Shown one piece after another: positions 12,238 through 55,376 of a DNA stretch of 64,000 nucleotides. The DNA lies in the NCBI GenBank assembly GCA_963846585.1, contig CAWJWO010000002.1, positions 199,592-263,591 on the forward strand, read 5' to 3'. The stretch is from an uncultured Bacteroidota bacterium. GTDB lineage: Bacteria; Bacteroidota; Bacteroidia; Bacteroidales; JAAUTT01. Positions within the stretch are counted from its first letter, which is position 1; the number at the start of each line of letters is the position of its first letter. The translations under genes and the position numbers were made by a program. The notes beneath the pieces are model-generated. The model saw nothing but the letters and a program-made list of their open reading frames with translations. It had not been told where the DNA came from and did no database searches.

Positions 12238-14670
12238 ATGATCAATATTAAATCTATTTTAAATAAAAGTAAAGATTTAGTTATATTGATAATATTAGGG
12301 TTATTAATTTTATGTGCAATTTTCCCCAGGTTCGATTTAACTTATACCCATGGTATTGACGGATCTCTTTCGTGGGTTTTTAACCATATATATAGCAGCG
12401 GTTTTCAAATTGGCAAAAATGTAATATTCCCTCATGGGCCCCTGGCATTTTTTATGTATCCAATGCAGGAAAATTTATTGTTGGCACTATTTGTTACAAC
12501 TGTTCTTCAATTGTTACTGGTTATTAATATCTTTTATGTATTAAATGGGTTTAACCCCGGTGAACGGTGGATAATTACTACATTGGTTTCAATAATTTTG
12601 CTGAACCTGTTAAGTTTTAATTTACTTATTTTAGCCAATGTCATTTTATTATTTCTTTTATTCAACGACGACTCAAAGAAAATACATTATAAGTACCTGG
12701 CATTTTTCCTAACTGTTTTTGCATTTTATGTAAAGGCTTATGTTGCAGTAGTGTCAGGAACGATAATATTTTCTTTCCTCGTAATTTCTTTTATTGCTCA
12801 ACGCAGGATTTATAAAACCCTCCTTGATTGTTCTATTTTATTGGTATTACTCTTAATTTTTTGGGTCGCCATATATGGATCATTTACAGGTATAATTCAA
12901 TACTTTATTGGTATGTTCAATTTGACCATGTCCAATTCAGCAGCGGTTTCCTTATATCCTGATAATTATTGGATTTGCTTGTCAATCTTTCTTGTAATTA
13001 CTTTTCTGATATCCTTTCTTCAAAAATCGCCGAAAGGTTATTATTTCGGTTCTTTACTTACATTAAGCATTTTTGCCGGATGGAAACATGGTATGTCACG
13101 TGAAGATATTCATCATGCCATTGAGTTTATGGTTTATATTATCATAATTTTCTTTCTCTTTATTATTTATGTCAGGAAAAACGTCAAATACAATATTATT
13201 TTTATTTTCATCGCGGTGCTGTTATTTGGTGTTAACCTCAGGAATGTTGTTAGTTTTCAAAATTATAAAATAGAGATAATCAGCGTTAACAACCTAATGG
13301 ATTTTATCAGCAATTTTTCAAAAATCAAAGAAGATGCGAATAAAGAAATTGAGGAAAATATAAATTTTAATAAAATGCCCGATGATATTATAAGCAAAAT
13401 TGGAAAGGCTAAATTAGATATTTATCCATGGGACTATTCCATTATACCTGCAAATAAATTAAACTGGCAACCAAGGCCTCAGATTCAAAGCCATTCAAGT
13501 TTTACGCCCTGGCTTGATAAAAAAAATGCAGATCACTTTAATTCAAAATCAGCGCCTGAATTTTTAATCTGGCATTTATATACAAGCAGTCAAACCGGAA
13601 TTCAAAAAACTTTTGAAAGCATTGACGGCAGGTATCTTTTAAATGACGAACCACAAACAATTATTCAAATATTGCGTAATTATGAATTATACTATAAAAA
13701 CAGCGATTTCCTTGTATATAAAAAGAGAAATATTCCTTTGCCGGTTATACAGAAGGTTTCATTGCCAGAGCATATCACCTGGGATCAATGGATCATTGTC
13801 CCTGATTCAAACAATGACCTGATAAGGATTAAAGTAAAAATAAAAGATTCTTTTTTAGGGTATTTGAAAGACTTTTTTTATAAAGGGAATTATTATTATA
13901 TATATTATAAACTATCAAATGGTTTTATTTATAAAAACCGGGTTGCATCAAAAATAGCAACTGAAGGTATGTGGATTGATCCTTATATAACCTTGCCATC
14001 CAATAATTTTATTGAGCCTAAAGTAAAAGAAATCTTATTTAAATGTTCAAATTCGCTTCTCTCCGATGATGATATAACAATTTCATGGGAAAATATTTCA
14101 TTTGGACCAGATACCAATGTTGGGAGAAACAATTATCCAAATGCATTTTTTGGCAAAAACCTGCAACCAGCCAATAATTTGTTAAAACAAACAACCAATA
14201 ATTTTGAGTTCATGAACGAAGAATGGACAAATATAGTGCCTGAAAATATGGTCACAAATGGCTACACTGGTATATATTCATGTACATTACAAATCAATTC
14301 ATATTCAGCGGCATTTGTATTAAGCCTTGATTCGTTTCAAAATAAAGAATTATTGATTGCAACAAATTGCTGGATAAAATCAGGAACAAATGCAGACGTC
14401 TTAATTGTAATTTCGGTAGAAAATAATTCCAAAATGCAGGTAAAGAATGCATCAAACATTAAGCCACAAATAATAAATAGTAAGGAATGGAACAATGTAT
14501 CCCGTTTTCAGGAATACAAAAGCGAGAAAAAAGGGGATGTATTAAAAATATTCTTGGTTAATATAGGTCAACAACCTTTATTATATGATGATTTTACAGT
14601 AAGAATTGAACAAAGAAACCCTGTTAATCCAGGTACATTTTACAAACTTCAAAGTGAAGGAACAAAATAA
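12238..14670 (+). CDS. Large polytopic membrane protein of unknown function (N-terminal ~340-aa TM bundle plus a soluble C-terminal half).
   Basis: ORF track and hydrophobicity pattern. No family motif recognised. Confidence 0.5.
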   Translation: MINIKSILNKSKDLVILIILGLLILCAIFPRFDLTYTHGIDGSLSWVFNHIYSSGFQIGKNVIFPHGPLAFFMYPMQENLLLALFVTTVLQLLLVINIFYVLNGFNPGERWIITTLVSIILLNLLSFNLLILANVILLFLLFNDDSKKIHYKYLAFFLTVFAFYVKAYVAVVSGTIIFSFLVISFIAQRRIYKTLLDCSILLVLLLIFWVAIYGSFTGIIQYFIGMFNLTMSNSAAVSLYPDNYWICLSIFLVITFLISFLQKSPKGYYFGSLLTLSIFAGWKHGMSREDIHHAIEFMVYIIIIFFLFIIYVRKNVKYNIIFIFIAVLLFGVNLRNVVSFQNYKIEIISVNNLMDFISNFSKIKEDANKEIEENINFNKMPDDIISKIGKAKLDIYPWDYSIIPANKLNWQPRPQIQSHSSFTPWLDKKNADHFNSKSAPEFLIWHLYTSSQTGIQKTFESIDGRYLLNDEPQTIIQILRNYELYYKNSDFLVYKKRNIPLPVIQKVSLPEHITWDQWIIVPDSNNDLIRIKVKIKDSFLGYLKDFFYKGNYYYIYYKLSNGFIYKNRVASKIATEGMWIDPYITLPSNNFIEPKVKEILFKCSNSLLSDDDITISWENISFGPDTNVGRNNYPNAFFGKNLQPANNLLKQTTNNFEFMNEEWTNIVPENMVTNGYTGIYSCTLQINSYSAAFVLSLDSFQNKELLIATNCWIKSGTNADVLIVISVENNSKMQVKNASNIKPQIINSKEWNNVSRFQEYKSEKKGDVLKIFLVNIGQQPLLYDDFTVRIEQRNPVNPGTFYKLQSEGTK

Positions 14671-14713: not shown

Positions 14714-16681
14714 TTGGAAGTTTTATCAACAATATATAAAAATAAATTTTTCAAACCTGTTATACTAACAGTTTTTTGTTTTGTTTTTTATATTAATACA
14801 ATACCAAACTTTTATGCCTATGATGATGGTATGGTAATAATTGAAAATCAATTTACAAAAAGCGGTATTGCCGGAATACCAGATATTTTTAAGCATGACT
14901 ATTTTTATGGCTGTGTTGGGAATGATAATGCTAATCTTGTTTCAATCGGCAGGTATAGGCCTTTGTCATTGGTAACATTTGCAATCGAGTTTCAATTATT
15001 TGGAGCAAACCCGCATATCAGTCATTTTATTAATATTATGCTTTTAGCTTTAGCCTCTTTAATTTTATATTTACTTCTCTCTAAAATATTCAGTTCTTAT
15101 TTTAATGAAAACAATTTCTTTGATTTGCCTTTCGTCACAGTACTTTTATTCATAGCCCACCCTGTTCATACTGAAGTAGTGGCCAATATAAAAAGCAGGG
15201 ATGAAATTATGGCTATGATAGGTTCCCTGACAACTGTATTTTTTATTTTAAAATATATCGATACTAACCATTTTAAGTATCTGGTAATTAGTTTTTTCTT
15301 TTTCTTGTTGGCCTTGCTCTCAAAGGAAAATGCCATTACTTTTTTAGCAATCATCCCTTTAACAATTTATATTTATAAAAAAGGTAACAGGGTTAACTAT
15401 TTAATGTGTTTAATACCCGTTTGTCTGGCAACAATTTTTTTCCTAATAATCAGGATATTGGCTATAGGTAAATTTAGCCCTCCCCCGAATGAGATTTTAA
15501 ACAATCCTTATATTTACGCTACAATAAATGAAAAATCCGCTACTATTTTTTATGTCTTAGGGTATTATATTAAATTACTTTTCTGGCCCAATCCACTAAC
15601 TTTTGATTACTTTCCATACCATATTAAGTTGGTAAACTGGAACAATATTTTTGCTTTATTATCATTATTGTTTTATGTGGTGATCATAGCGTACGCGGTA
15701 TTGACAATTAGAAAAAAAACAGTTATTTCCTTTGGTATATTATTTTATATAATAACACTTTCAGTGGTATCTAACATATTTATCCCTGCCAGTTCATTTA
15801 TGGGAGAAAGGTTTTTATTTATGCCTTCTATAGGGTTTTTAATTATAATAGCGTGGCTGTTAACAGTAAAAATTCCTAAGATTGTTAAATCTTTTAATTT
15901 AAAAATACCTCTTTTGATAGTAATATTTACACTAAGTTTTTTTAAAACATATAGCCGTAATAAAGTATGGAACAATAATTTTACTTTGTTTACAACTGAT
16001 GTAAAAACGTCATCTAATAGCATTAAAGGCAATATGATTGCAGGAAGATTATATCTTGACATGGCAACCGAGACTGCTGACGATTTATTAAAGAAACAAT
16101 ATTTAGCAAACGCGTTAAAATATTCAAAAAAAGATGTCTCAATTTGCCCAAACCATATCGATGCAGTTACTCTTTTAGCAGATGCTTATACAGCGAATAA
16201 TATGCCGGATTCGGCAATATTCTGTTATCAGAAAGCAATTTATTTAATTCCTAAAAAAGCAGACTATATTTCCATGAAAGTTGAAGAAATAATGGATAAA
16301 ATAAGCAATCCGGATTTCAAAATTGAAAACTATCTTTATTTTATTAAATCATCACCTGATAATTTTATTTTTAATTATCAACTCGCTTATTTATTTGCCA
16401 GATATAAGAAAGATTTTATAAAGTCCGGCTTCTATCTTCAAAAATCAGTTGAAATCATCCCCGATAATTACATGGCAAATATGGCATTAGGAGTAAACTA
16501 CAGGTTACTTGGCGATTATAATAAATCATCTTTTTATCTTGAGAAAGCTTTAGAAATTAATCCCAACTTCTTACCTATTTGCGAAAACTTATTAATTACA
16601 TACAAAAAATCAGGAAATATTAAAAAAGAAAAAGAAGTATTAAAAAAGATAAAAGAATTGGAAAATGGAAAAAATAATTAA
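14714..16681 (+). CDS. GT-C-fold membrane glycosyltransferase-like protein with C-terminal TPR repeats (TMTC/DUF1736-like).
   Basis: GRYRPLSLVTFAIE, HPVHTEVVANIKSRDE and LLSKENAITF motifs, many TM helices, TPR tail. Paralogue of 29510-31474 and 31512-33134. Confidence 0.6.
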   Translation: MEVLSTIYKNKFFKPVILTVFCFVFYINTIPNFYAYDDGMVIIENQFTKSGIAGIPDIFKHDYFYGCVGNDNANLVSIGRYRPLSLVTFAIEFQLFGANPHISHFINIMLLALASLILYLLLSKIFSSYFNENNFFDLPFVTVLLFIAHPVHTEVVANIKSRDEIMAMIGSLTTVFFILKYIDTNHFKYLVISFFFFLLALLSKENAITFLAIIPLTIYIYKKGNRVNYLMCLIPVCLATIFFLIIRILAIGKFSPPPNEILNNPYIYATINEKSATIFYVLGYYIKLLFWPNPLTFDYFPYHIKLVNWNNIFALLSLLFYVVIIAYAVLTIRKKTVISFGILFYIITLSVVSNIFIPASSFMGERFLFMPSIGFLIIIAWLLTVKIPKIVKSFNLKIPLLIVIFTLSFFKTYSRNKVWNNNFTLFTTDVKTSSNSIKGNMIAGRLYLDMATETADDLLKKQYLANALKYSKKDVSICPNHIDAVTLLADAYTANNMPDSAIFCYQKAIYLIPKKADYISMKVEEIMDKISNPDFKIENYLYFIKSSPDNFIFNYQLAYLFARYKKDFIKSGFYLQKSVEIIPDNYMANMALGVNYRLLGDYNKSSFYLEKALEINPNFLPICENLLITYKKSGNIKKEKEVLKKIKELENGKNN

Positions 16682-17408: not shown

Positions 17409-18104
17409 ATGAAAATACAGCAATATTTACTGTTAATTTTTGTAGCCTATATATCAGCAGTCTCTTGCAAAAGAAAAAGTACAGGCAATATTCCGGAATT
17501 GAAAAATAGCGTGGATTCATTAAGTTATTTCACCGGCATTTTTACCGGAAATACTATGAAAAACCTTGATGACACAGTATTCAACCCTGATATTTTTTAC
17601 CAAGCTGTAAAAGAAGTATTTAAACAAAAGGAATTTAAAATGGGCAAATTAGAGGCAGATTATAATATAGGCAAATATTTTGATAAGCTACACGAAAAAG
17701 AAGAAGAAAAAAATTTAAAACAAGGCAAAGAATTTTTATCTAAAAATAGTATACGTAACGGAGTAATAACTACTCCAAGTGGCTTGCAATACGAAGTGAT
17801 AAGGGAAGGTGCAGGTGCAAAACCTAAAATCAATGAAAAGGTATTGGTTAAATATTCTGGTTCACTTATCAATGGAAAGGAATTTGCAAATACTTTTACT
17901 TTAAATAGGGTTGATACACTGTATTTTAGAAAGAATGAAATAATGCCTGGGTTCTTTGAGGCCTTAAAAATAATGAAAGCAGGTTCAAGATATAAAATTT
18001 ACCTGCCTGCCTCGTTAGCTTTTGGAAATAACCCGCCACCATTAGACGGGCTTAAGCCAAATATGGTTGTTATTTTTGATATTGAAATAATTTCAATTAT
18101 TTAA
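17409..18104 (+). CDS. FKBP-type peptidyl-prolyl isomerase lipoprotein (paralogue).
   Basis: Lipobox AVSC. TTPSGLQYEVIREGAG ... LPASLAFG. Confidence 0.8.
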   Translation: MKIQQYLLLIFVAYISAVSCKRKSTGNIPELKNSVDSLSYFTGIFTGNTMKNLDDTVFNPDIFYQAVKEVFKQKEFKMGKLEADYNIGKYFDKLHEKEEEKNLKQGKEFLSKNSIRNGVITTPSGLQYEVIREGAGAKPKINEKVLVKYSGSLINGKEFANTFTLNRVDTLYFRKNEIMPGFFEALKIMKAGSRYKIYLPASLAFGNNPPPLDGLKPNMVVIFDIEIISII

Positions 18105-20061
18105 GTTTCATTTGTTGTTTTATTTGTTCAAAATTTTGAAGGGCTGGGGAAAAATCAGGCTTTATTTTCAAAGCTCTTTCAAACCAGGATGCAGCAATTT
18201 GATAATCATGCAAGTTGGCATATATTATTCCCAAATTGTTCATAGCGTATATAGAGATTGAATCGTGTTTCAGAAAAGCAATAAACTGGTCTCTTGCTTT
18301 TTCAAATTGGTTTGTTTGCATGTATATCTCTCCAAGTTTGAATCTGATTTTTGAACTATAATATGAATAGGACTGTTTGCTTTCCGATGTTGTGGTAATA
18401 TTTATTTCATCATCAGAAATGTGAGTTCTTATTAAAGCTATGGTTTTATTGTATTCATCGATTGCCATGTATTTCATTCCTGAATTATATAAAGCATGTG
18501 CAAGGTTATCCCGAAATTCTAACCCTTCCGGATAAGCAATAACAGCTTGTTTGTAATGTCTTATTGCATTGTTATAATCGCCTGCACAAACAAATAACGT
18601 TCCAATATTATTATAGATAGTACCATTATTACTCTGATCATCTACTTTAAACAAATTATTATTGACTAATAATACCAAAGGAAAAAGCCCAATAGTGGCA
18701 TAGACAACAGGAAGGATTTCCTGTTTTATTAACTTATTAACAATCCACCATATTGTAAAGGCTGCAAAAATAAAAAGGGATATTACAACCGGAAACCTGT
18801 ATTCTGAAGAATTATAATAAATAATAGCACCCAAGAGGTACATAAAAGTATATAAAAGCAACAGGTTTAACTTTTCATTTTTATTAAATAACAGGATCAT
18901 TCCGAGCAAAGCAAGAGGTGCAATTATTCCAAAATTTATTAAGGGGGCTTTTAAAAGGGGAAAATAATTTTTACATATATTATATTCTAGTCCATTTATT
19001 GGTAGTTCATAAGCATTCCAAAATATAAAAAATTTTTTTGCTAACAAACCAACCCATTGCAATGGATTATTTTTAATAAAATTAAATGATTGCCCATACC
19101 AGTAATCTGAAGCCTCTATCGTGGTAAGTTTACGGCCCATACGCTTCGATGCCTCAATAACAAATCCCGCGTGTTCGAACCTTGTGTCCGGGTTATAAAA
19201 ATATTGGGCTTCATAAATACCCCTGGCATCATGGTTGTTGCCATTAAAAAAATTAAAACCTCCTGCCCCGCTCGTTAATACAAGTTCATTATTTATAGAA
19301 TAATTCCTGATTCCAAAAGGGATTGAAATCAACAGATACCCTAAAAATAAGCAGGCTATAAATGAAAATAAATTTTTTAACCGAACAGGGAAGCCTGAAG
19401 ATAAAATGTACCAAATAAGTATAAACGGGACAAAAAGAAGAATATTAGGTCTTAAATATGCTGATAATCCCAAAAAAAGCCCTGCAAAAAAGTAGAATTT
19501 CATCGACTTTTTTTCCAAACCCTGAAAAAGCATAAGTAAAATTAAAATATTACAAAAATTAATGAGGGCTACCTTAAGCAAAAATCCTTCATAAAAAATT
19601 GAAATACCATAAAAGACTGATATTGCAGCAGCCAATGTTGCAATCCGGTCCACGCTTTTTTCGGACAAAAATGGTTTTCGTTCATTTTCGGGATTATTAA
19701 GGTTTCGGATTGAAAAAACTTTTTTAGCAAGAATAAATACAAGAGAACAGTTAACTGAGCCAATTATAAACTGGATGAGGGCAACAGCGGGTATACTATG
19801 CCCGAATATAAAATAAATAACTGAAAGAAGATAAGGATAGGCAGGGCTCATAAAATCAAAGTCCCGACTGAGCCAGTCTTTATTAAATATCTCAATTGCC
19901 CAGACATCGTAATGCTTTGCATCTAATAATGGATATAAAAATAAAGGACTATCCTTAATTAAAATAAAATGAATTACACGGATAATAATGGCAACAAGAA
20001 ATATTCCGGCAACTTCAAAAAAAAGTTTATTTTTAACTGATATTTTGGATTTAAATTTCAT
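18097..20061 (-). CDS. ArnT/PMT-like (GT-C) membrane glycosyltransferase with C-terminal TPR repeats.
   Basis: About 12 TM helices followed by TPR-like repeats (NNLGIIYANLHDYQIAASWFERALKIKPD). Confidence 0.55.
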   Translation of the reverse strand: MKFKSKISVKNKLFFEVAGIFLVAIIIRVIHFILIKDSPLFLYPLLDAKHYDVWAIEIFNKDWLSRDFDFMSPAYPYLLSVIYFIFGHSIPAVALIQFIIGSVNCSLVFILAKKVFSIRNLNNPENERKPFLSEKSVDRIATLAAAISVFYGISIFYEGFLLKVALINFCNILILLMLFQGLEKKSMKFYFFAGLFLGLSAYLRPNILLFVPFILIWYILSSGFPVRLKNLFSFIACLFLGYLLISIPFGIRNYSINNELVLTSGAGGFNFFNGNNHDARGIYEAQYFYNPDTRFEHAGFVIEASKRMGRKLTTIEASDYWYGQSFNFIKNNPLQWVGLLAKKFFIFWNAYELPINGLEYNICKNYFPLLKAPLINFGIIAPLALLGMILLFNKNEKLNLLLLYTFMYLLGAIIYYNSSEYRFPVVISLFIFAAFTIWWIVNKLIKQEILPVVYATIGLFPLVLLVNNNLFKVDDQSNNGTIYNNIGTLFVCAGDYNNAIRHYKQAVIAYPEGLEFRDNLAHALYNSGMKYMAIDEYNKTIALIRTHISDDEINITTTSESKQSYSYYSSKIRFKLGEIYMQTNQFEKARDQFIAFLKHDSISIYAMNNLGIIYANLHDYQIAASWFERALKIKPDFSPALQNFEQIKQQMKLK

Positions 20062-20149: not shown

Positions 20150-21475
20150 ATGAATAGAGCAGGAATAATTAGTTTTGACGGTACAGAGACAATAAATGGT
20201 TTTATTGAAAGACCTGAAAAATACAGCCATTTATTCGAGGTTGTAAATTCAACTTCAGGCTGTATTGCCAGAGGTTCCGGCTTAAGTTATTGTGCTGCTG
20301 GTTCCGGGAATGAAATTACCAGCATTGATATGACAAAATTTAACCGGATACTTATGTTTGACGAAACAAAAGGTATTATCAAAGTCGAATCAGGAATGCA
20401 GGTTGGCGAATTTATTAATTTTATTGCTCAAAAAGGATGGTACTTCAATGTTATTCCCGGATACCCTTCCATCACGATTGGAGGGTGTGTGGCATTCAAT
20501 GTACACGGAAAATCACAATTTAATATTGGGACATTTGGCGATCATATAAAAGAACTCACTTTATATCATCCGGCGTATGGTGAAATGATATGTAATAAAT
20601 CTAAGAATCAAGATGTTTTTGACCTCACTGTCGGAGGTTTTGGCCTTACAGGCATAATACTGAGCGTAACCCTTGTTTTATCGTGCTTAAAAGGAAACAG
20701 AGTAATAAGGCAAAAAGCAAAATGCAGGAATTTGTCAGATGCTGTAGAAAAAATGCTCTCATTAAAAAACGAATATGAAAATGTTTATTCATGGAATAAC
20801 CTGAACATTTCAGGTAAAAATTTTGGTAAAGGCATCATTTATCTTGAAAAATTTCACGATGGAACCTTAACCCTATTTCAAGATTATAATTATACGCGTT
20901 TTAATACTTATTCTTCAAGAAAATCCGGGATTAATATTATTAATCGAATTACAGCAGAATTTATTTGTTCCCTGTATTATAGTAAAGAATTTATTTCACC
21001 ATCTTTTACAAATTTAAGTATTACTGAAAGCACATTTCCTATTTATGGAAAGGAAATTTATTATTATCTTTTTGGCAGCCAAGGCTTCAGGGAATATCAG
21101 TTAATAGTCCCATTAACCGGGGCTGATGAATTTTTTTCAGGGCTACAGAATTTAATTAAAAAATTCGGGATACCTGTTACATTGGGTTCATTAAAAATAT
21201 TTAAGGGTGGCAACATTTATTTAAATTTTTGTAAAGACGGGATTTGTCTTGCATTAGATGTCCCTGCAATTACTAAATCCCAAACTTTCTTTTCAGAAAT
21301 TGATGATCTGACTTTGAGGTTTAATGGCATAGCAAATATATCAAAGGATTCCAGGTTACACGCCAAAACAATTAATGGAATGTATAGTCAATATGGTAAA
21401 TTCAAGAGTGAGATATTGAAGTACGATCCGCGAAAATATTTTACATCATCATTGAGGCAAAGAATAGAGGTTTAA
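20150..21475 (+). CDS. FAD-binding (PCMH-type) oxidoreductase, DprE1-like.
   Basis: ARGSGLSY, IGGCVAFNVHGK and VGGFGLTGIIL resemble the DprE1 family FAD-binding segments. Confidence 0.6.
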   Translation: MNRAGIISFDGTETINGFIERPEKYSHLFEVVNSTSGCIARGSGLSYCAAGSGNEITSIDMTKFNRILMFDETKGIIKVESGMQVGEFINFIAQKGWYFNVIPGYPSITIGGCVAFNVHGKSQFNIGTFGDHIKELTLYHPAYGEMICNKSKNQDVFDLTVGGFGLTGIILSVTLVLSCLKGNRVIRQKAKCRNLSDAVEKMLSLKNEYENVYSWNNLNISGKNFGKGIIYLEKFHDGTLTLFQDYNYTRFNTYSSRKSGINIINRITAEFICSLYYSKEFISPSFTNLSITESTFPIYGKEIYYYLFGSQGFREYQLIVPLTGADEFFSGLQNLIKKFGIPVTLGSLKIFKGGNIYLNFCKDGICLALDVPAITKSQTFFSEIDDLTLRFNGIANISKDSRLHAKTINGMYSQYGKFKSEILKYDPRKYFTSSLRQRIEV

Positions 21476-21609
21476 TTAGTGTTTGCTCCATAAAGTCCGG
21501 ACATTAAAGACAGACACTGATTAGGTTTGTCCATAATGTGCGTTGCATTCGTTACGATTGTCAGAATATTATTTGATAGTGGCTATTAAGTACATAAATT
21601 GTTAATACA

Positions 21610-22344
21610 TTGAACACTGCAATAATTTTAGGTGCGAGTTCAGGAGTGGGCAGGGCATTGGCCGAAAAGCTTGGAAGAGATGGTTGTGGCTTGGTTCTTT
21701 GCTCAAGAAGTAAAAGGGATTTGGAAGCAAATGCCGCGAATATTTCATTGAAATATAACATATACACACAGGTATACACGATTGATATAAATGAAAAAAA
21801 TGAAAGGGATAAATTGGTTTCGTATATTTCAAAAGGAAAAAATATCAATTCCATTTTCATAACTGTTGGTGATATGGTTGAACACGACAATGGATTGCAG
21901 GACTGTCTTATTGTCGATCGTTTGGTGAATTCAAATTTTCTTTCAATTGCTCATTTTTTATCTGCATTAATTCAATCAGTCGACAAAAGGGAAGAATTGA
22001 AAATTTATTTAATGTCAAGCATAACTATTTGCAGACCAAGAAAAAACAATTTGGTGTATGCCTCATCAAAAATGGCAATTGATTTTTATTGTCGTGGCTT
22101 ACAGCATTTGCTGGCTGATTCGTCTATAAGAATAATAATTTTCAGGCTTGGATATATAGATACAGCAATGAGCTATGGAAAAAAATTATTATTGCATCCG
22201 GTTTCATCAAGTCTCGTCGCTGAAAAAATTATTACAAAACTAAAAAAAAGAAACCGAATTTATTATTATCCAGGTTATTGGAGATATATTGTTATTATAG
22301 TAAAATTGGTACCCTGGATAATATACAAGAGGATAGTCTTTTAG
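21610..22344 (+). CDS. Short-chain dehydrogenase/reductase, DprE2-like by context.
   Basis: GASSGVGRA Rossmann motif and YASSKMA (YxxxK) catalytic motif. TTG start as in the ORF track. Confidence 0.65.
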   Translation: MNTAIILGASSGVGRALAEKLGRDGCGLVLCSRSKRDLEANAANISLKYNIYTQVYTIDINEKNERDKLVSYISKGKNINSIFITVGDMVEHDNGLQDCLIVDRLVNSNFLSIAHFLSALIQSVDKREELKIYLMSSITICRPRKNNLVYASSKMAIDFYCRGLQHLLADSSIRIIIFRLGYIDTAMSYGKKLLLHPVSSSLVAEKIITKLKKRNRIYYYPGYWRYIVIIVKLVPWIIYKRIVF

Positions 22345-22405
22345 CGGACACAAATAAATTAAGGTAATAAAAAGTATTTTATGTGACTTAAATTCAGCCA
22401 ATATA

Positions 22406-23140
22406 ATGATAGAAAAACCAAAAATAAGTTTGTTTTTCCCGGTTTTCAATGACGAAAATACTGTTAAAATAGTGACAGAAAAAGCTATTCAGGTTCTGGA
22501 TGATATAGCAGAAGATTATGAAATATTAATAATAAATGATTGTAGCCCTGATAAATCTGGTATTATAGCAGATGAATTATCCGGACAAAACAACAAAATA
22601 CGGGTAATTCATCACGCTGAACATTTGGGATATGGCGCAGCAGTATTAACAGGACTCACTAATTCGCAATTTGAATATATATGTTTTACAGATGGTGATG
22701 ATGAATATGATGTAACTGATTTTAGAAAGTTATTAAAACTTCGGGATTATTATGATCTTATTATCACATTCCGTTACATAAGGATGTACTCATCATGGAG
22801 GATATTTGTTTCAAGAACATATAATATATTACTCAGATTTCTTTTTAAAGTTAAATACAGGGATATAAGTACAGGTCTTAGAATGATAAGAAAAAGCCTC
22901 CTGAATGAAATTTCCATTCAATCGACAAGTCCGTTTATTGGAGCCGAAATTACAATTAAAGCTATGCTTAAAGGTTACAGGGTTGGCGAAGTGGGAATTC
23001 AAACATTTCCCCGCGCTTTTGGCAAAGGCGTATCAGTATCTTCAATAAATATTTGGAAAACGATAAAAGATATGATTAAAATACATGGTCAGATATTTTC
23101 TTCAGATTATGATTTACCAAAAGACAGATCAAGATTTTGA
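22406..23140 (+). CDS. GT2 glycosyltransferase, polyprenyl-phosphate sugar synthase-like (DPM1/ArnC/GtrB type).
   Basis: ISLFFPVFNDE, ILIINDCSPD and FTDGDDEYD (DxD) motifs. Confidence 0.7.
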   Translation: MIEKPKISLFFPVFNDENTVKIVTEKAIQVLDDIAEDYEILIINDCSPDKSGIIADELSGQNNKIRVIHHAEHLGYGAAVLTGLTNSQFEYICFTDGDDEYDVTDFRKLLKLRDYYDLIITFRYIRMYSSWRIFVSRTYNILLRFLFKVKYRDISTGLRMIRKSLLNEISIQSTSPFIGAEITIKAMLKGYRVGEVGIQTFPRAFGKGVSVSSINIWKTIKDMIKIHGQIFSSDYDLPKDRSRF

Positions 23141-23159: not shown

Positions 23160-25013
23160 TTGAAAATACCAGACAAGTTTATTTACATGTTTTTACTTTT
23201 AGTATTAACAGTAATTGCATTTTCTCCCTCGCTATCAAATTCATTTACCAATTGGGACGATCCTATATATGTTCTAAATAATTCATTAATCCGTTCGCTA
23301 TCATGGCATAATGTTTGCTACATATTTTCCCCAACTACATTTTCTTGTGGCAACTATCATCCTGTAACAATTATGTCACTGGCAGTTAATTTTCATTTAG
23401 GACATCTTGACCCATTTGGTTACATACTATTTAACCTGATTTTACATTCTTTAAGCGTATTGCTTGTATTTACTATAATCCGAAAATTATTTAAAAACGA
23501 TCCCGTCGCGTTTATTTGTGCTGTTTTTTTCGCTGTACATCCTACCAATGTTGAGCCTGTAGCATGGGTGGCTGGCAGAAAAGATGTGCTTTTTGTTTTC
23601 TTTTACCTGTCATCAATTGTCATTTATTTAAATTATCTCGAAAAAAAAGATAAAAATAGTATATTAAGATATCTGTGTGTTTTTGTTCTTTTTATGTTAT
23701 CCCTGCTTTCCAAGGGAACAGCCATGACCCTGCCTGCTATTTTATTTCTTATCGATTATTACAAAAACAGAAAGTTCAATCTTAAGATGGTTCTTGAAAA
23801 AATTCCATTTTTTATCATTTCCATTATTATCATCTTTATAGAAATGAAATCACAGAAGGAATATGGAGCTGTTGCACCTCCTGCTTCATTCGCGGTAATG
23901 CAAAAACGTTTTATAATATGTTATGGCTACGACTGCATTTTTTATGTTATCAGGTTTTTTGCCCCTGTTAATCTTTCAGCATGCTATCCTAATCTTATTT
24001 CTCTTCCTGATAAATTACCCCTAATCTATTATGCAGGTTTTATAGCATCTATAGTAATATTGTCCTTGGATATATACTTAATAAGAAAAAATAAAATCAT
24101 CTTTTTTGGTTTAACGTTTTTTTTTATTGCAATATCAACAGGATTACAATTCCGATTTGTAAGTGGCGGTTCTATTGCAGATAGGTACACATATATACCC
24201 TTTATAGGAATATCCTTTATTGTTGCATATTATTTCGAAAAGTTAATATCGGGAATTTATTTGAAAAGGGTAAGAAAATTGATATTTACTTTGGGGGTTG
24301 TTGTAATAATTTTGTTCTCATATTCAACTTATACCCGCTGTGAAATATGGAAAAATTCAGGGGTTTTATTCACGGATGTGATCAGCAAATATCCTGATAT
24401 ACCAATGGCTTATACGAACAGGGGCTCCTTTTATTTTAACTATGGATACTTTGATGAAGCTATCAGGGACTATAGTAAAGCTATTGAACTCAAACCAGAT
24501 TATGCCCTTGCTCTTTATAACCGGGGCACTGCCTTCTATACTTTGAGAAAAATGGATTTTGCAATTAAAGATTACACTAATGCTATACAACTTAATCATG
24601 ATTACACAGATGCATATAACAACAGGGGAATTGCCTATATGTATAGTGGTAAAATCAGGGAAGCTATTATAGACTATAGCAAAGCTATTAAATTGAAGCC
24701 AAATTATACTGATGTATATTACAATCGCGGATTAGCTTTTAAAACCATTGGCCAAATGGCAGATGCAATAAATGACTTCAATCTGACAATAATAATGGAC
24801 CCAAATTACATTAAGGCATATTACAATCGTGGAATTTCATATAAAGAAAATGGAAATATTGATAACGCCATCAATGATTTCAACATTATTATTAAAATGT
24901 CCCCTACAGAGGCAGAGTTTTATTTTAAACGCGGGGAATGTTATAAATTGAAAGGCTTATTAAAAGAAGCGGAAAGTGATTTTAATGAGTATAACGAACT
25001 AATTAATAGATAG
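23160..25013 (+). CDS. GT-C-fold membrane glycosyltransferase-like protein with C-terminal TPR repeats (a more distant TMTC/DUF1736-like paralogue).
   Basis: YHPVTIMSLAVNF, HPTNVEPVAWVAGRKD and LLSKGTAMTLP. Six or more canonical TPRs (AYNNRGIAY...). Confidence 0.6.
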   Translation: MKIPDKFIYMFLLLVLTVIAFSPSLSNSFTNWDDPIYVLNNSLIRSLSWHNVCYIFSPTTFSCGNYHPVTIMSLAVNFHLGHLDPFGYILFNLILHSLSVLLVFTIIRKLFKNDPVAFICAVFFAVHPTNVEPVAWVAGRKDVLFVFFYLSSIVIYLNYLEKKDKNSILRYLCVFVLFMLSLLSKGTAMTLPAILFLIDYYKNRKFNLKMVLEKIPFFIISIIIIFIEMKSQKEYGAVAPPASFAVMQKRFIICYGYDCIFYVIRFFAPVNLSACYPNLISLPDKLPLIYYAGFIASIVILSLDIYLIRKNKIIFFGLTFFFIAISTGLQFRFVSGGSIADRYTYIPFIGISFIVAYYFEKLISGIYLKRVRKLIFTLGVVVIILFSYSTYTRCEIWKNSGVLFTDVISKYPDIPMAYTNRGSFYFNYGYFDEAIRDYSKAIELKPDYALALYNRGTAFYTLRKMDFAIKDYTNAIQLNHDYTDAYNNRGIAYMYSGKIREAIIDYSKAIKLKPNYTDVYYNRGLAFKTIGQMADAINDFNLTIIMDPNYIKAYYNRGISYKENGNIDNAINDFNIIIKMSPTEAEFYFKRGECYKLKGLLKEAESDFNEYNELINR

Positions 25014-28097: not shown

Positions 28098-29513
28098 TTG
28101 AAATCTGTTAAAATGGCTAAAGTCCTTCTTGTTAATTCGTGTAGCCCTGGAATCATGGGTAAAAGAAAAGATATTGGCGGCAAGCATCATCCTCTTGGGT
28201 TATTGTACATAGCATCGGTACTCCTGGAAAATAAACATGAAGTTCAAATTTGTGATGAATTGGTAGGACAAATTCCCGAAGAGTATTTACTTTCATTCAA
28301 ACCTGAATATTTAGGCGTAAGCGTAAGAACTCCTGCATTTAACAGGGCTATTCAAATTGCCAAAGCTGCCAAATCATTTGGAACAAAAGTTATATTTGGC
28401 GGCCCTCACGTTTCAGCACTTCCGGAAGAATCTATTATGGCTTCTGACTTTGTTGACGGAGTAATTGTCAATGAAGGCGAATATACATTTCTTGAATTAT
28501 TAAATAGTTCAGATTGGTCAAATGTCAGAGGATTGGTATATAAAAAAGATACAATGGTATTGAAAAACCCTCCTCAAGAAAAAATCATCGATTTAAATTT
28601 ATTACCATTCCCTGCAAGGCAACTCCTTGATGAAAAATTATATTACGGTACCCCGGAATATGGATTTTTAGTTCCACCACGTCAAAAATTTTGGACTATT
28701 TGCAGTTCAAGAGGTTGCCCTTATAATTGCACATATTGCAGTTCTGCTAATATTTTTGGAAAGAAATTCAGGTTCCGGAGTGCCTTAAACATTTTCAATG
28801 AAATAATGGAAGGATATAAACTTGGGGTAACAAATTTTGTATTTATTGACGATTCATTCGGCTTAAACAGTGAAATTACATCTGAACTATGTAACCTGAT
28901 AATTGAAAATAATATTATTATAAGGTGGTGCTGCCAAACAAGAGTAACTATACCAATTGAAACTATCAAATTAATGAAAACAGCCGGTTGTTCCCTTATT
29001 TCATTTGGAATTGAATCCGGTTCAGAAAAAGTATTGGAAAATATAAAAAAAGGATTAACTAAAGATCTAATGAGAAAAGGGATTGAAAATGCAAAAAAAA
29101 CAGGCCTATTGGTCAAGGCATACTTTATTATTGGTTTACCAGGTGAAGGCAAAGAAGAATTTAAAGAATCCCTTATTTTTGCAAAATCTCTTGATATAGA
29201 TTATTTGTGGTTATCAATCATAAAGATACTACCGGGATCAGAATTATGGAATACTAACATGGATAATATTGATTATAAAAATATTAATTGGGAAGATTTA
29301 AGTTATTTTAGTATAAATAATAATAAATTACTTCAAAAAAGGTATAATTTATTTTTAATATTGTTCTTTTTACAACCAAAGTTTATAAAAAATTTAATTA
29401 AAAGGATGTCCTATAGTGAAATGATGTATTTTTTAGAACTCATTAACGTATTTATACGTGAAAAATTTTACAATTATTATTCTGTTAGAAATAGAAAACA
29501 TCAAATTATATGA
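28098..29513 (+). CDS. B12-binding-domain radical SAM enzyme (class B).
   Basis: N-terminal B12-binding-like segment (HHPLGLLYIASVL). CPYNCTYC CxxxCxxC cluster. The likely true start is ATG at 28113 (MAKVLLVNS). The stop overlaps the next gene (ATGA at 29510-29513). Confidence 0.75.
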   Translation: MKSVKMAKVLLVNSCSPGIMGKRKDIGGKHHPLGLLYIASVLLENKHEVQICDELVGQIPEEYLLSFKPEYLGVSVRTPAFNRAIQIAKAAKSFGTKVIFGGPHVSALPEESIMASDFVDGVIVNEGEYTFLELLNSSDWSNVRGLVYKKDTMVLKNPPQEKIIDLNLLPFPARQLLDEKLYYGTPEYGFLVPPRQKFWTICSSRGCPYNCTYCSSANIFGKKFRFRSALNIFNEIMEGYKLGVTNFVFIDDSFGLNSEITSELCNLIIENNIIIRWCCQTRVTIPIETIKLMKTAGCSLISFGIESGSEKVLENIKKGLTKDLMRKGIENAKKTGLLVKAYFIIGLPGEGKEEFKESLIFAKSLDIDYLWLSIIKILPGSELWNTNMDNIDYKNINWEDLSYFSINNNKLLQKRYNLFLILFFLQPKFIKNLIKRMSYSEMMYFLELINVFIREKFYNYYSVRNRKHQII

Positions 29514-31474
29514 CTGAATCACTAAATATTAATAAAAGCAAAATATTAAAGTTTATTTTTATTTCAGTGATTTGTTTTATTTTTTATGGTAATTCAATTC
29601 CAAATAAATATGCTTTTGATGATTTTATTGTTATCACACATAATCAGTTTACTCAAAATGGTATAGCTGGCATTCCTGATATTTTAAAGTTTGATTCATG
29701 GGTTGGTTGTTTTGGTAAAAATCCGAAATTTGTTGAAGGTGGTCGATACAGACCATTATCATTGGTTACCTTTGCTCTTGAGAACCAATTTTTCGGGAAA
29801 AATCCTTATTTTAGCCATTTGATTAATGTTTTATTGTATATATTAACGGCCTTGTTATTATATACTTTACTTTTAAAGTTGTTTGGCAAGTATTTAAACA
29901 GTAATGAATTTTTTGATTTTCCTTTTATTGCCGTATTACTATTTATTATACATCCTATCCATACTGAGGTAATTGACAATATTAAATGCAGGGATGAAAT
30001 CATGACTTTGGCCGGTTCCCTCGCTGCTACAATTTTTATTTTGAAATACGTCGATTTTCATAAAATAATTTACCTTTTATATAGTTTCATCTGTTTTTTC
30101 CTTGCACTCCTATCAAAAGAAAATGCGATTACTTTTTTAGCTGTTATTCCATTATCAATATATTTTTATAGAAAAACTAACATCTTAACTTATATATATT
30201 CTTTAATTCCTTTATTTATTGCCACCATTTTATTCCTAATAATAAGAAAGTTAGCATTGGGAGAAACCGCTGCCCCACATCAGGATTTTATAAGCAACGC
30301 ACTCATAGATGCTTCCTTTACTCAAAAATACGCTACTATTTTCTATGCCCTCGGGTTATATATTAAATTACTTGTATTCCCTCACCCGCTTACGTTTGAT
30401 TATTATCCGAACCATATCCCAATTGTAAATTGGACCAATATATTTGCTATCCTTTCATTTTGCTTCTATTGTTTTATTTTGATATACGCTTTGTTAACCA
30501 TTGCCAAAAGGTCAGTCATTTCATACGGGATTTTATTTTATTTACTTCCCCTTTCTATAGTGTCTAACCTATTTTTCCCGATTGGAGGAGCAGTTATTAC
30601 TGAACGGTTTATTTTTATTTCTTCCATAGGGTTTTCAATTATAATTGCCTGGTTTTTATCAACCAAAGTGTTTGTTCTACTAAAATCAAGTTATTTAAAG
30701 ACATCCCTGATAGCTGTAGTAATGCTATTTTGCTTTATTACAACTTACAGCCGGAATAAGGTTTGGAAAGACGACTTTTCTTTGTTTACCAATGATGTTA
30801 AAACCTCTTTTAATAGCCGGAAAAGCAATTTAGGAGTAAGTGTAGTTTTATTGGAAAAGGCTAACCAAATAAATGATAGTATTTTGGCCCGTAAATACAG
30901 GAAAGATGCATTATTCTACGCTAACAGGTTGGTTAAAATATTTCCCAATTATGTTGATGCGGTTTACCGTTTAGGAAATGCATATTCGGAAAATAATATG
31001 CTGGATAGTGCCTTGGCTTGTTATAAAAGAACCATTTATTTATCCCCTGATTTAAATAATACAATATGTGATCAAATACCTTCAGTACTAAATAAGTCAA
31101 ATGACGTTGATTTCAAAATGAAATATTATCTTGAATTTATAAAATATTCCCCTGATAATTTTTCTATTAATTTTGAAATTGGATATTTATCAGGCAGGTA
31201 TAAGAACGATATTCAAAATTCTATATATTACCTTACCAGGGCTGTTGAAATTCAACCTGGTAATTTTGACGCGAATAATAATTTAGGCCTTGCATACAGG
31301 TTAGCCGGCAAATACGATAAATCCTCAATTTATCTTAAAAATGCAGTAAAAATAAACCCTTATAGTTTATCGGCATGGCAAAGTCTATATATTACTTATA
31401 AATTAGCCGGCGAGAAAGAAAATGAAACGGAAGTTTTGAAAAAAATTGATGATCTCCAAAACACCGGTTATTAG
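29510..31474 (+). CDS. GT-C/TPR membrane glycosyltransferase-like protein (TMTC/DUF1736-like paralogue).
   Basis: GRYRPLSLVTFALE, HPIHTEVIDNIKCRDE and LLSKENAITF. TPR tail. Confidence 0.6.
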   Translation: MTESLNINKSKILKFIFISVICFIFYGNSIPNKYAFDDFIVITHNQFTQNGIAGIPDILKFDSWVGCFGKNPKFVEGGRYRPLSLVTFALENQFFGKNPYFSHLINVLLYILTALLLYTLLLKLFGKYLNSNEFFDFPFIAVLLFIIHPIHTEVIDNIKCRDEIMTLAGSLAATIFILKYVDFHKIIYLLYSFICFFLALLSKENAITFLAVIPLSIYFYRKTNILTYIYSLIPLFIATILFLIIRKLALGETAAPHQDFISNALIDASFTQKYATIFYALGLYIKLLVFPHPLTFDYYPNHIPIVNWTNIFAILSFCFYCFILIYALLTIAKRSVISYGILFYLLPLSIVSNLFFPIGGAVITERFIFISSIGFSIIIAWFLSTKVFVLLKSSYLKTSLIAVVMLFCFITTYSRNKVWKDDFSLFTNDVKTSFNSRKSNLGVSVVLLEKANQINDSILARKYRKDALFYANRLVKIFPNYVDAVYRLGNAYSENNMLDSALACYKRTIYLSPDLNNTICDQIPSVLNKSNDVDFKMKYYLEFIKYSPDNFSINFEIGYLSGRYKNDIQNSIYYLTRAVEIQPGNFDANNNLGLAYRLAGKYDKSSIYLKNAVKINPYSLSAWQSLYITYKLAGEKENETEVLKKIDDLQNTGY

Positions 31475-31511: not shown

Positions 31512-33134
31512 ATGTTGGAGGCATTTTCAGTTTTATATAATAACAAGATGTTTAAACCTGTTATTTTAGGTATATTTTGCATTATTTTTTATGGAAATAC
31601 CATTCAGAATAATTACGCGCTTGACGACGGCCTGGTTATTAATGATAACCGGTTTACTACAAATGGCATTTCAGGTATACCTGATATATTTAAATATAAT
31701 TCTTTTACAGGTAGTCTCGGGGAAAATGCTACTCTGGTAACAGGGGGAAGGTACAGACCTTTATCCCTAACTACTTTCGCGATTGAATATCAAATATTCG
31801 GAGCTAACCCGCGGTTGAGCCATTACTTTAATGTATTACTTTTCCTTATCACTGCATTATTATTATATAAGTTACTTATAAAGTTATTTTATCGATATAG
31901 TTCAAAGGAAATCTTATCAGATTTACCCTTCATTGCCACTCTGATTTTTATAATTCACCCTATACATACCGAAGTTGTTGCCAACATTAAAGGCAGGGAT
32001 GAAATAATGGCTCTTGGAGGTTCTCTCGCTACAATAATATTTATAATTAAATATCTCGATACAACTAAAATAATATATCTGATATCAAGCATTGTCCTAT
32101 TTTTAACTGCCTTATTGTCAAAAGAAAATGCTGTTACTTTTATAGCTATAATACCTCTGTGTATTTACTATTATAAAAATGAAAAATGGATTAAATATTT
32201 ATATTGTTTATTATCATTGTTCATAGCCCTTTTTATTTTTCTAGTCATGAGAAAACTGGCTCTGGGAGATATAAGCAAACCTCCCGGTGAATTATTAAAT
32301 AACCCGTATATTTATGCCTCAGTTCCGGAGAAATTTGCCACTATTTTTTATACCCTCGGTATTTATATAAAACTTCTTTTTTGGCCAGACCCTTTAACTT
32401 ACGATTACTATCCGTACCATATTAAGTTAATAAATTGGGATAATAGTGTCGCTTTATTATCATTAATTGTTTATATCTCGCTATTTGTCTATGCCATTGT
32501 GAAATTAAAATATAAAACAACAATTGCATTTGGAGTGCTATTTTTTATGATTACCCTCTCAATTGTTTCAAACATATTTTTTAATATTGGTACATTTATG
32601 AGTGAACGCTTTATATTTATTCCTTCTATTGGTTTTGTAATAATTATAGCATGGCTTTTCACGGTAAAATTGCCGGAATATATAAAATGGGTTAATTTTA
32701 GGATTGTGTTTTTAACGATAATAATGACATTGTGTTTTATAAAAACATACAGTCGCGATAAAGTCTGGAAAAATAATTTTACGTTATTTACTACAGATGT
32801 TAAAACCTCTTTTGACAGTGCTAAAAGCAATATGGCAGCCGGTAATGTTTGGTTATATTTAGCATATCAAACCAATGATAGTTTATTAAGAAAAAAATAT
32901 TTTAATAATGCCTTGTTTTATTCCAGAAGGGCTCAATCTATATATCCGAATCATGTTGACATTGCAATTCTTTTGGCAAATGCCTATTCTGAAAATAATA
33001 TATTAGACAGTGCAATAATTTATTATAAAAAGGCTATAGATTTAATGCCCGAAAAAACCGACTTTATTTTCGAAAAAATAAAACAAACTTTGAATAAAAC
33101 AAATGATATAAATTTTAAATTTAACCAAAAGTAA
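31512..33134 (+). CDS. GT-C membrane glycosyltransferase-like paralogue, lacking most of the C-terminal TPR region present in its 654-655-aa paralogues.
   Basis: Same motifs (GRYRPLSLTTFAIE, HPIHTEVVANIKGRDE). Ends at ...KTNDINFKFNQK, where the paralogues continue for ~110 aa. Confidence 0.6.
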   Translation: MLEAFSVLYNNKMFKPVILGIFCIIFYGNTIQNNYALDDGLVINDNRFTTNGISGIPDIFKYNSFTGSLGENATLVTGGRYRPLSLTTFAIEYQIFGANPRLSHYFNVLLFLITALLLYKLLIKLFYRYSSKEILSDLPFIATLIFIIHPIHTEVVANIKGRDEIMALGGSLATIIFIIKYLDTTKIIYLISSIVLFLTALLSKENAVTFIAIIPLCIYYYKNEKWIKYLYCLLSLFIALFIFLVMRKLALGDISKPPGELLNNPYIYASVPEKFATIFYTLGIYIKLLFWPDPLTYDYYPYHIKLINWDNSVALLSLIVYISLFVYAIVKLKYKTTIAFGVLFFMITLSIVSNIFFNIGTFMSERFIFIPSIGFVIIIAWLFTVKLPEYIKWVNFRIVFLTIIMTLCFIKTYSRDKVWKNNFTLFTTDVKTSFDSAKSNMAAGNVWLYLAYQTNDSLLRKKYFNNALFYSRRAQSIYPNHVDIAILLANAYSENNILDSAIIYYKKAIDLMPEKTDFIFEKIKQTLNKTNDINFKFNQK

Positions 33135-51781: not shown

Positions 51782-51793
51782 AAATAAAAACTT

Positions 51794-55355: not shown

Positions 55356-55376
55356 ATAAGACTTAATAAAATAAAA

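Follow-up and report, generated by a model that had tools for sequence, protein, structure and literature searches.

The mycobacterial decaprenyl-phospho-arabinose route consists of the UbiA-type transferase DPPRS (Rv3806c), the phosphatase Rv3807c, the enzymes DprE1 and DprE2, and the Emb/Aft glycosyltransferases of the GT-C class. ArnD is a precedent for modifying a sugar once it is on the lipid, and we know of no redox epimerisation step in the Gtr-type and Arn systems. The Gram-negative pentofuranose systems include those of Citrobacter youngae (ORF15 PPPRS-PRP, ORF14 MATE and ORF12 GT136, with or without the ORF13 epimerase) and Pseudomonas aeruginosa TfpW (Kelly et al. 2024, PMC11127046). 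In these three-component systems the epimerases are auxiliary, phosphoribosyl pyrophosphate (PRPP) and a UbiA-type synthase are postulated to be the common entry for ribofuranose (Ribf), arabinofuranose (Araf) and xylofuranose (Xylf) side chains, and Kelly et al. state that further epimerases are not known to them from the glycosylation of O-polysaccharide side chains (PMC11127046). On-lipid epimerisation is known only for PRPP-derived pentofuranoses, namely those of mycobacterial arabinan, Pseudomonas pilin arabinosylation and O-antigen Xylf/Araf (PMC11127046). The full-text literature that we searched holds no DprE1/E2-like system fed by a family 2 glycosyltransferase (GT2) beyond the PRPP-based ones, which is absence of evidence only, as most subscription journals lie outside that coverage. 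Here we analyse a three-gene set that appears to be such a system, found in a 64,000-nt stretch of DNA (the window) from an uncultured Bacteroidota bacterium (GCA_963846585.1, contig CAWJWO010000002.1, positions 199,592 to 263,591). An earlier note, made from the letters of the window, had claimed three same-strand open reading frames (ORFs) in the order flavin adenine dinucleotide (FAD) oxidase, short-chain dehydrogenase/reductase (SDR) and GT2 at 20150–23140, and these are present at exactly those coordinates on the + strand:

20150..21475, + strand, DprE1-like FAD-dependent oxidase (441 aa, ATG start)
21610..22344, + strand, DprE2-like SDR (244 aa, TTG start)
22406..23140, + strand, small GT2, candidate polyprenyl-phosphate glycosyltransferase (244 aa, ATG start)

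We consider it probable that this triad is a cytoplasmic-face module in which a nucleotide sugar, and not PRPP, supplies the sugar that the GT2 attaches to polyprenyl phosphate, the FAD/SDR pair epimerises that sugar, and GT-C enzymes bearing tetratricopeptide repeats (TPR) use it. In such a module, as the fold and family of the GT2 suggest, this enzyme would load polyprenyl phosphate (probably undecaprenyl phosphate) with the sugar of a common nucleotide sugar. The DprE1-like flavoenzyme would then turn one ring hydroxyl of the sugar on the lipid into a ketone, a role to which its homology and catalytic residues point, and by analogy with DprE1 the oxidised position may be C2. Reduction of the ketone from the opposite face by the DprE2-like SDR with NAD(P)H would yield the epimer, the donor would be flipped across the membrane, and GT-C enzymes (18097–20061 on the − strand and/or 23160–25013), which conserved synteny suggests as the users, would move the sugar to periplasmic acceptors. 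As the GT-C enzymes carry TPR domains, these acceptors may be proteins. The sugar itself is probably not ribose or arabinofuranose, because a GT2 feeds the pathway and the pocket of the oxidase is unlike that of DprE1. A bolder version, which we put forward as possible though rather doubtful, is that the polyprenyl-phosphate sugar made by the module lacks a nucleotide-sugar equivalent, being the rare 2-epimer of some common pentose or hexose, in some cases also O-methylated by the associated methyltransferase, and that it serves GT-C glycosylation across phyla.

The FAD protein matches Pfam FAD_binding_4 (E = 7e-17; Pfam was run on every ORF of the window that reaches 120 aa and is not nested inside a longer one, and ORF calls and transmembrane (TM) helix counts come from simple scripts). 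The NCBIfam DprE1 model NF053785 covers it over its full length (model positions 18–448 of 449) with 210 bits, and the next-best flavoenzyme families, lactone oxidases, GlcD and GlcE among them, reach at most 48 bits. The search of the PDB gives the same picture, as DprE1 of Mycobacterium tuberculosis (Mtb) and M. smegmatis is the top match (E = 7e-34, 120 bits) and L-galactonolactone dehydrogenase (GLDH) follows at E = 9e-10 and 41 bits. The placement which the earlier note had asked for thus groups the protein with DprE1 and not with GlcD, ALO, D-lactate dehydrogenase or MurB-type oxidases, and the three segments on which its likeness to DprE1 had been based are all found (ARGSGLSY at residue 40, GGCVAFNVHGK at residue 111 and GGFGLTGIIL at residue 162). 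The protein is predicted to have neither a signal peptide nor a convincing TM helix.

The equivalents of Mtb Y60, H132, K134, Q336, K367 and K418, which from published DprE1 structures we take to be the catalytic or FAD-proximal residues, are invariant across 21 FAD sequences of the GT2-linked clade and correspond to Y47, H119, K121, Q317, K349 and K399 of the window protein. When all FAD clades are aligned (Mtb numbering), Y60, G117, H132, K134, W230, Q336, K367, K418, D419 and R421 are conserved in every one of them. The substitutions that run throughout the GT2-linked clade lie elsewhere: R58 to L, T118 to Y or H, S228 to Y, G321 to E, Q334 to E, V365 to S, N385 to C, C387 to A and Y415 to N, with two further glutamates (E302 and E315 in the window protein) invariant in this clade. 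Among these positions R58, T118, Q334, V365, N385, C387 and Y415 presumably belong to the ribose/inhibitor pocket of Mtb DprE1. The pattern of catalytic residues kept and a pocket remodelled fits the same chemistry on a different sugar. The GT2-linked oxidases therefore also separate catalytic from pocket-specific residues, which bears on the biology of DprE1 itself.

The SDR is a Pfam adh_short protein (84 bits) that matches both the NCBIfam DprE2 model NF053786 (87.7 bits) and PRK07102 (135 bits) over its full length. Its sole PDB match below E = 1e-8 is DprE2 itself (21gq_C, E = 1e-13), with SDR residues 3–242 aligned to DprE2 residues 11–252. It carries the Gly-rich motif GASSGVG at residue 8, S136 and Y150-x3-K154, and from about residue 226 a hydrophobic C-terminal helix, as in DprE2. 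Judged by sequence, the FAD/SDR pair is a co-diverged sister lineage of DprE1/DprE2 with an altered substrate pocket, and not a pair of orthologs.

The GT2 (Pfam Glycos_transf_2, 85 bits) has a DXD motif (D96-G-D98) which, together with E100, is invariant. Its likeness in sequence to ArnC, AglJ, the dolichyl-phosphate (DolP)-hexose transferase and PpgS is weak, yet extends over the whole domain. An AlphaFold2 (AF2) model of the protein (predicted local distance difference test score, pLDDT, 77) was compared with the PDB using Foldseek, and ranks 1–25 are all DolP-mannose synthase (DPMS) of Pyrococcus furiosus, ArnC or GtrB (E = 6e-15 to 6e-11, ∼230–240 columns, query-normalised TM-score 0.59–0.74), with other GT2 enzymes ranking lower. 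No TM helix is predicted in the GT2, which stops where the TM helices of its GtrB-like relatives start. However, C-terminal TM helices are not universal in this family, as the NCBIfam models for PpgS and the DolP-hexose transferase are TM-less and only 213–226 positions long. The GT-A fold of the model thus suggests a peripheral, TM-less relative of DPMS, GtrB and ArnC, for which we propose polyprenyl-phosphate glycosyltransferase activity.

The same three genes recur in distant phyla. A scan of species-representative genomes seeded with the FAD protein gave 33 loci from Bacteroidota, Acidimicrobiia, Bdellovibrionota, Thermoguttaceae (Planctomycetota), Betaproteobacteria, Verrucomicrobiota, Melainabacteria and a Streptomyces-labelled metagenome-assembled genome (MAG), to which a contig look-up added a Daviesbacteria genome of the Candidate Phyla Radiation (CPR). 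For 32 distinct genome loci the sequence extends 1.7 kb or more downstream; the SDR is immediately adjacent to the oxidase gene in 28 of them, a GT2 at least 50% identical to that of the window is present in 26, and this GT2 directly follows the SDR in 22. Loci with FAD, SDR and GT2 in the same order span Bacteroidota, Acidimicrobiia, Bdellovibrionota, Planctomycetota, Betaproteobacteria and CPR, and overall the order is fixed, with genes directly adjacent or overlapping, in at least 8 phyla, even though the genes around the triad differ. Such recurrence of one gene order in phyla so distant from one another means that the arrangement is not due to chance. A metagenome scan seeded with the GT2 yielded 500 pattern-matching stretches, at least 416 of them confirmed relatives; in the best 80, which are the top-scoring ones and not a random sample, the FAD gene is present in 35 of the 43 loci with at least 2.3 kb of upstream sequence, 25 of them in the canonical order. 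The families are large (652 oxidase clusters at 50% identity with E ≤ 1e-30, and at least 1,506 GT2 homologs), and the nearest relatives with a name, for both the FAD protein and the GT2, are 70–80% identical and labelled 'candidate division KSB1'.

Conservation within the triad is highest for the GT2, with 56–65% identity across phyla versus 38–45% for the FAD protein, homologs of which at this level occur in many phyla, and 30–42% for the SDR. The GT2 also occurs without FAD and SDR genes, still beside methyltransferase and GT-C/GT87 genes (Singulisphaera sp. GP187 and locus L041), which suggests that what the GT2 makes can already serve as a donor and that the FAD/SDR pair is an add-on, or accessory 'diversifier'. 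Two loci show a related arrangement, in which a GtrB-like GT2 with TM helices (PgfS/ArnC-like) lies directly upstream of a more divergent FAD–SDR pair:

L029:8889-11476 (Melainabacteria MAG), divergent FAD–SDR pair after a GtrB/PgfS-like GT2
L030:8965-11326 (Verrucomicrobiae MAG), divergent FAD–SDR pair after a GtrB/PgfS-like GT2

On sequence grounds these two loci appear to be a second, independent pairing of the oxidase lineage with a polyprenyl-phosphate glycosyltransferase, and so a second type of GT2-fed DprE1/E2-like system.

Gene content near the triad varies in other respects. An S-adenosylmethionine (SAM)-dependent methyltransferase of ∼220 aa stands between the GT2 and the GT-C gene in ∼40% of related loci, with or without FAD and SDR (for example L010:12793-13437, L039:10802-11461 and L005:12796-13599). 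It may methylate the lipid-linked sugar; a homolog was sought in the window and none was found. DegT aminotransferases accompany the module in some loci, and an aminotransferase is likewise absent from the window. In a Usitatibacter MAG an ORF that overlaps and follows the FAD gene (L032:10971-13034) ends in an LPG_synthase_TM (MprF-like) domain, which could be a candidate flippase module beside the oxidase.

If the module were fed by PRPP, a UbiA-type transferase would be its first enzyme, and the earlier note had proposed to look for one. UbiA and GtrA were sought with Pfam on the window ORFs and on multi-TM neighbours, with motif regular expressions and with tblastn. No UbiA-family protein is present among the window ORFs, and the PPPRS sequences of Rhizobium and Chondrinema, which as a positive control find each other at about E = 1e-30, have no tblastn match in the window or in 41 loci (E ≤ 1), nor in the 80 metagenome loci (E ≤ 1e-5). 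The multi-TM neighbours of UbiA size belong by Pfam to ABC-2, MlaE, GT4, acyltransferase and similar families, with no UbiA among them. The search thus came back empty for the 64-kb window and for each of the 121 related loci.

Canonical loci are readily told apart from these. On a plasmid of Rhizobium leguminosarum WSM1325 the order is UbiA–GtrA–FAD–SDR, and on a plasmid of Chondrinema litorale (Bacteroidota) it is 'decaprenyl-phosphate phosphoribosyltransferase'–FAD–SDR–acyltransferase–GT39. The UbiA-linked FAD proteins of these two loci score 404–428 bits with the DprE1 model and ∼280 bits with mycobacterial DprE1 in the PDB, versus 176–215 and 120 bits for the GT2-linked ones. The SDRs behave alike, as the UbiA-linked ones score 171–189 bits with the DprE2 model (and 322–359 bits with PRK07102) and the GT2-linked ones 82–88 bits. 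In a neighbour-joining tree M. smegmatis DprE1 and the two UbiA-linked FAD proteins group together, and all GT2-linked FAD proteins form a separate clade, with ∼25% identity between the clades. Since both the tree and the scores split UbiA-linked from GT2-linked proteins, gene context tracks phylogeny and not host taxonomy. The earlier note had called the pathway unusual for a Bacteroidota-like genome, and this holds for its GT2 feed but not for its host: the module is widespread across phyla and not peculiar to Bacteroidota, and UbiA-fed DprE1/E2 systems also occur in Bacteroidota, as the Chondrinema plasmid shows.

The putative users of the lipid-linked sugar are encoded on both sides of the triad. 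The description of the triad as embedded among GT-C/TPR genes proved correct, as five such genes surround it:

23160..25013, + strand, TMTC-like GT-C membrane domain with C-terminal TPR (617 aa), candidate user of the lipid-linked sugar
18097..20061, − strand, PMT_2-like GT-C with TPR (654 aa; PMT_2 23 bits plus TPR)
14714..16681, + strand, TMTC-like GT-C/TPR paralog (weak PMT_2, TMTC_DUF1736 and TPR matches)
29510..31474, + strand, TMTC-like GT-C paralog (assigned by TPR and paralogy)
31512..33134, + strand, TMTC-like GT-C paralog (assigned by paralogy)

The gene at 23160–25013 begins 19 nt past the end of the GT2, from which we conclude that it is probably co-transcribed with the GT2; a convergent gene comes next, and FAD, SDR, GT2 and 23160–25013 probably form one transcription unit. 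The gene at 18097–20061 is divergent from the triad, with an AT-rich spacer of 88 nt between them. The proteins encoded at 23160, 14714, 29510 and 31512 are paralogous (jackhmmer) and share invariant residues (D33-D34, Y66/P68, H127-P128..E132, S184-K185..T190 and R342 in 23160–25013) that correspond to the TMTC motifs DD, YRP, HPxHTE, KExxT and ERxxY (PMC7801869). Three of these paralogs have full TPR arrays at the C-terminus, and 31512–33134 has only a weak, sub-threshold TPR remnant. A PDB profile search gave no match for the GT-C fold of 23160–25013, and its AF2 model, made from a four-sequence alignment, has a pLDDT of 37.5, too low for use; its assignment to GT-C is made because of the motifs and the paralogy.

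In other loci the gene beside the triad commonly encodes a protein of 450–540 aa with 7–10 TM helices, and one subfamily of these reaches the Pfam PMT_2 threshold. A hidden Markov model (HMM) of this module-linked GT-C family (alignment A2) finds members in at least 17 triad genome loci. Comparison of the A2 alignment with 18097–20061 gives a probability of 83% (hhalign, E = 9e-6, 174 columns), and comparison with 23160–25013 is not significant (probability 7%), so that by sequence 18097–20061 is the window's best counterpart of the GT-C family that accompanies the triad in other loci. Further triad loci encode YfhO, PMT/PMT_2, GT87 and DUF2079 proteins. Of the 29 metagenome loci that span at least 7 kb, 28 encode a protein with 6 or more TM helices and a length of 350 aa or more, and among 30 such membrane proteins those that Pfam can classify are mainly PMT_2, PMT, YfhO and DUF2079, with MatE in one. 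Both the window and its relatives thus hold a lipid-phosphate-sugar synthase candidate and a GT-C enzyme in one locus, as expected of a three-component system, and the triad is kept with GT-C genes (PMT_2, PMT, GT87, YfhO, DUF2079) in relatives, as the earlier note had wished to see. Another assembly (L001, ENA ERZ25039473 contig_66195) is 99.99% identical to the window over 14.4 kb and so comes from essentially the same genome. Relative to window position 19178 it has a 1-nt insertion (AA to AAA) that frameshifts the GT-C gene 18097–20061 into two ORFs; the insertion may have arisen naturally or be an error of assembly, and the N-terminal fragment of this counterpart matches the A2 HMM at 1.7e-7.

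The idea that a lipid-linked sugar made by the GT2 is epimerised by the oxidase/reductase pair is therefore supported by the grouping with DprE1 and by the co-conservation of triad and GT-C genes, and its chemistry is inferred. Several points weigh against it. The support consists of homology, catalytic residues, fold, two-way synteny, the lack of a linked PPPRS and the clade split, and every enzymatic step is deduced from these. C2 as the oxidised carbon is taken by analogy; the NAD-epimerase/dehydratases of neighbouring genes were considered as a guide to the sugar and set aside, as they are heterogeneous (Gmd, CDP-Glc dehydratase, LegB-like, GalE-like and erythronate-DH-like) and allow no conclusion, and the NAD-epimerase-fold protein of the window (33145–34140) matches none of the NCBIfam models. 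All three triad proteins fall under curated cut-offs: the FAD protein has 210 bits where the DprE1 equivalog model demands 500, for which reason we assign it to the DprE1 group yet do not call it an ortholog, the SDR has 87.7 versus 250 bits for DprE2 and 135 versus 267 bits for PRK07102, and the GT2 is below the NCBIfam ArnC cut-off. The FAD tree is a neighbour-joining tree of 28 sequences without bootstrap, nearly all loci come from MAGs or metagenomes with some lineages related to one another, and the UbiA search covered the 64-kb window and ∼10 kb at the 121 loci. Most of the neighbouring polytopic proteins have no Pfam match and a few are Wzx, MatE/MATE or Wzy. Finally, a flippase was sought by tblastn with GtrA and among small TM ORFs and none was found in the window, where the sole small TM ORF between 9 and 34 kb is antisense inside the radical SAM gene and none is plausible, and GtrA has no match in any of the 121 loci at the E limits used for UbiA.

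Other explanations were weighed. In the canonical arabinofuranose route a UbiA-type transferase, encoded at another place in the genome, would make polyprenyl-phosphate-ribofuranose from PRPP, the pair would epimerise it and the GT2 would be an unrelated neighbour. DprE1 and DprE2 are after all the closest characterised relatives of the pair, and all known bacterial DprE1/E2 systems begin at PRPP (PMC11127046). However, an unrelated GT2 would hardly be syntenic across phyla and the most conserved of the three genes, no UbiA lies within ∼10 kb in 121 loci or in the 64-kb window, and the UbiA-linked pairs, even those from Bacteroidota, are a separate clade far closer to mycobacterial DprE1/E2, from which the pocket residues of the GT2-linked oxidases differ systematically; we regard this route as improbable. 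A GT2 that is an ordinary glycan-elongating enzyme, standing beside FAD and SDR only through shared surface-glycan clusters, would explain its low sequence scores to ArnC, DPMS and GtrB (38–50 bits), its lack of the TM helices of GtrB and ArnC and the typical polysaccharide genes that surround the triad in other loci. We find this very hard to believe given a fixed adjacent or overlapping gene order in at least 8 phyla in which the surroundings vary, best full-length structural matches that are exclusively polyprenyl-phosphate glycosyltransferases, and the existence of TM-less enzymes of that kind (the PpgS and DolP-hexose transferase models).

A third alternative concerns what the pair acts on, and when. 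It may act before the GT2 or on another substrate (a nucleotide sugar, a free sugar or alditol, or a glycolipid), or yield something other than a 2-epimer (a 3-epimer, or an aminated or methylated keto-sugar), and the GT2 would then transfer or build on the product. The pocket, remodelled relative to DprE1 and including the clade-invariant E302 and E315, is compatible with this, as are the SAM methyltransferase in ∼40% of loci, the DegT aminotransferases in some, and the wider PCMH-family relatives that oxidise free alditols and lactones. Such a scheme nonetheless strikes us as unlikely, if worth keeping in mind. The pair still has the DprE1/E2 architecture, the catalytic residues and, in the SDR, the C-terminal membrane helix, and the window encodes neither the methyltransferase nor the aminotransferase. 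Moreover, the GT2 is equally conserved with or without FAD and SDR, so that it most likely works ahead of the pair, on an ordinary donor. A GT2-made sugar that the pair epimerises on the lipid remains our preferred reading.

The region from 9 to 34 kb holds, besides the triad and the five GT-C/TPR genes, two fusions of major facilitator superfamily (MFS)-like, spermidine-synthase-like and TPR parts, two FKBP isomerases, a B12-radical-SAM enzyme, an 810-aa polytopic protein and the NAD-epimerase-fold protein. The two fusions (9089–12211, + strand, and 25030–28011, − strand) are ∼1000 aa long, each with an MFS-like polytopic part, a spermidine-synthase fold and C-terminal TPRs, and bracket the GT-C cluster. 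As they are the sole transporter-like proteins near the triad an export role for the lipid-sugar comes to mind, though this is speculation. The B12-binding radical SAM protein (28098–29513, + strand) has its best match in HpnJ (208 bits, below cut-off), and its stop overlaps the start of the GT-C gene at 29510, which suggests that the two are translationally coupled. The 810-aa polytopic membrane protein (12238–14670, + strand) lies within the GT-C cluster and has no Pfam match. Further away the window contains an IS4-type DDE transposase (3534–4664, + strand), a group II intron reverse transcriptase/maturase (60012–61409, − strand) and a type I restriction-modification system (48727–58220, − strand) with hsdM at 48727–50250, hsdS at 51794–53032 and hsdR at 55377–58220. 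Interleaved with the hsd genes are two ORFs without Pfam match, 50339–51781 (480 aa) and 53022–55355 (777 aa), which could be accessory defence genes.

If our reading is true, on-lipid epimerisation extends past PRPP-derived pentofuranoses to sugars from ordinary nucleotide sugars. This would predict undescribed lipid-linked donors and surface glycans. On the bolder version the product would be a new donor class in many, mostly uncultured, phyla, used by TPR-bearing and other GT-C enzymes for the glycosylation of periplasmic proteins or polysaccharides. The triad is also a compact three-gene set suited to reconstitution in vitro, and a genomic marker for GT-C enzymes with non-standard donors.

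Compared with the known systems, the triad shares with the mycobacterial pathway an FAD/SDR pair that is homologous over its full length and encoded by adjacent genes, the conserved H132, K134, Y60, Q336 and K418, and GT-C enzymes as presumed users. It differs in its feed, which is a GT2 and a nucleotide sugar where mycobacteria have a UbiA-type PRPP transferase and a phosphatase, in its FAD and SDR proteins, which are ∼25% identical to DprE1/E2, form a separate clade, score below cut-off and have replaced pocket residues, and in its GT-C partners, which are of PMT_2, TMTC, GT87 and YfhO types and not Emb/Aft. With the Gram-negative pentofuranose systems it has in common a lipid-phosphate sugar at the cytoplasmic face, optional on-lipid epimerisation by auxiliary enzymes (here FAD/SDR as the optional add-on) and subsequent use by GT-C enzymes. 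In contrast to those systems, which use PRPP and a UbiA-type synthase and make pentofuranoses, the triad locus has no PPPRS, haloacid dehalogenase (HAD) phosphatase, MATE or GtrA. The four TMTC-like paralogs of the window resemble the eukaryotic O-mannosyltransferases TMTC1–4 in their ∼11 TM helices, C-terminal TPR and DD, YRP, HPxHTE, KExxT and ERxx(Y/F) motifs, but are bacterial, match Pfam DUF1736 only below threshold and are linked to the triad by adjacency alone. The Gtr-type (GtrB/GtrA/Gtr*, CsbB/YfhO) and ArnC–ArnD–ArnT systems likewise have a GT2 fed by a nucleotide sugar and GT-C users, and YfhO and PMT_2 partners occur in loci related to ours; the triad GT2 is set apart from theirs by the lack of C-terminal TM helices, by its own tightly conserved subfamily and by the lack of a GtrA-like flippase. 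Taken together, we propose that the triad combines the GT2 entry of the Gtr/Arn-type systems with on-lipid epimerisation of the DprE1/E2 type.

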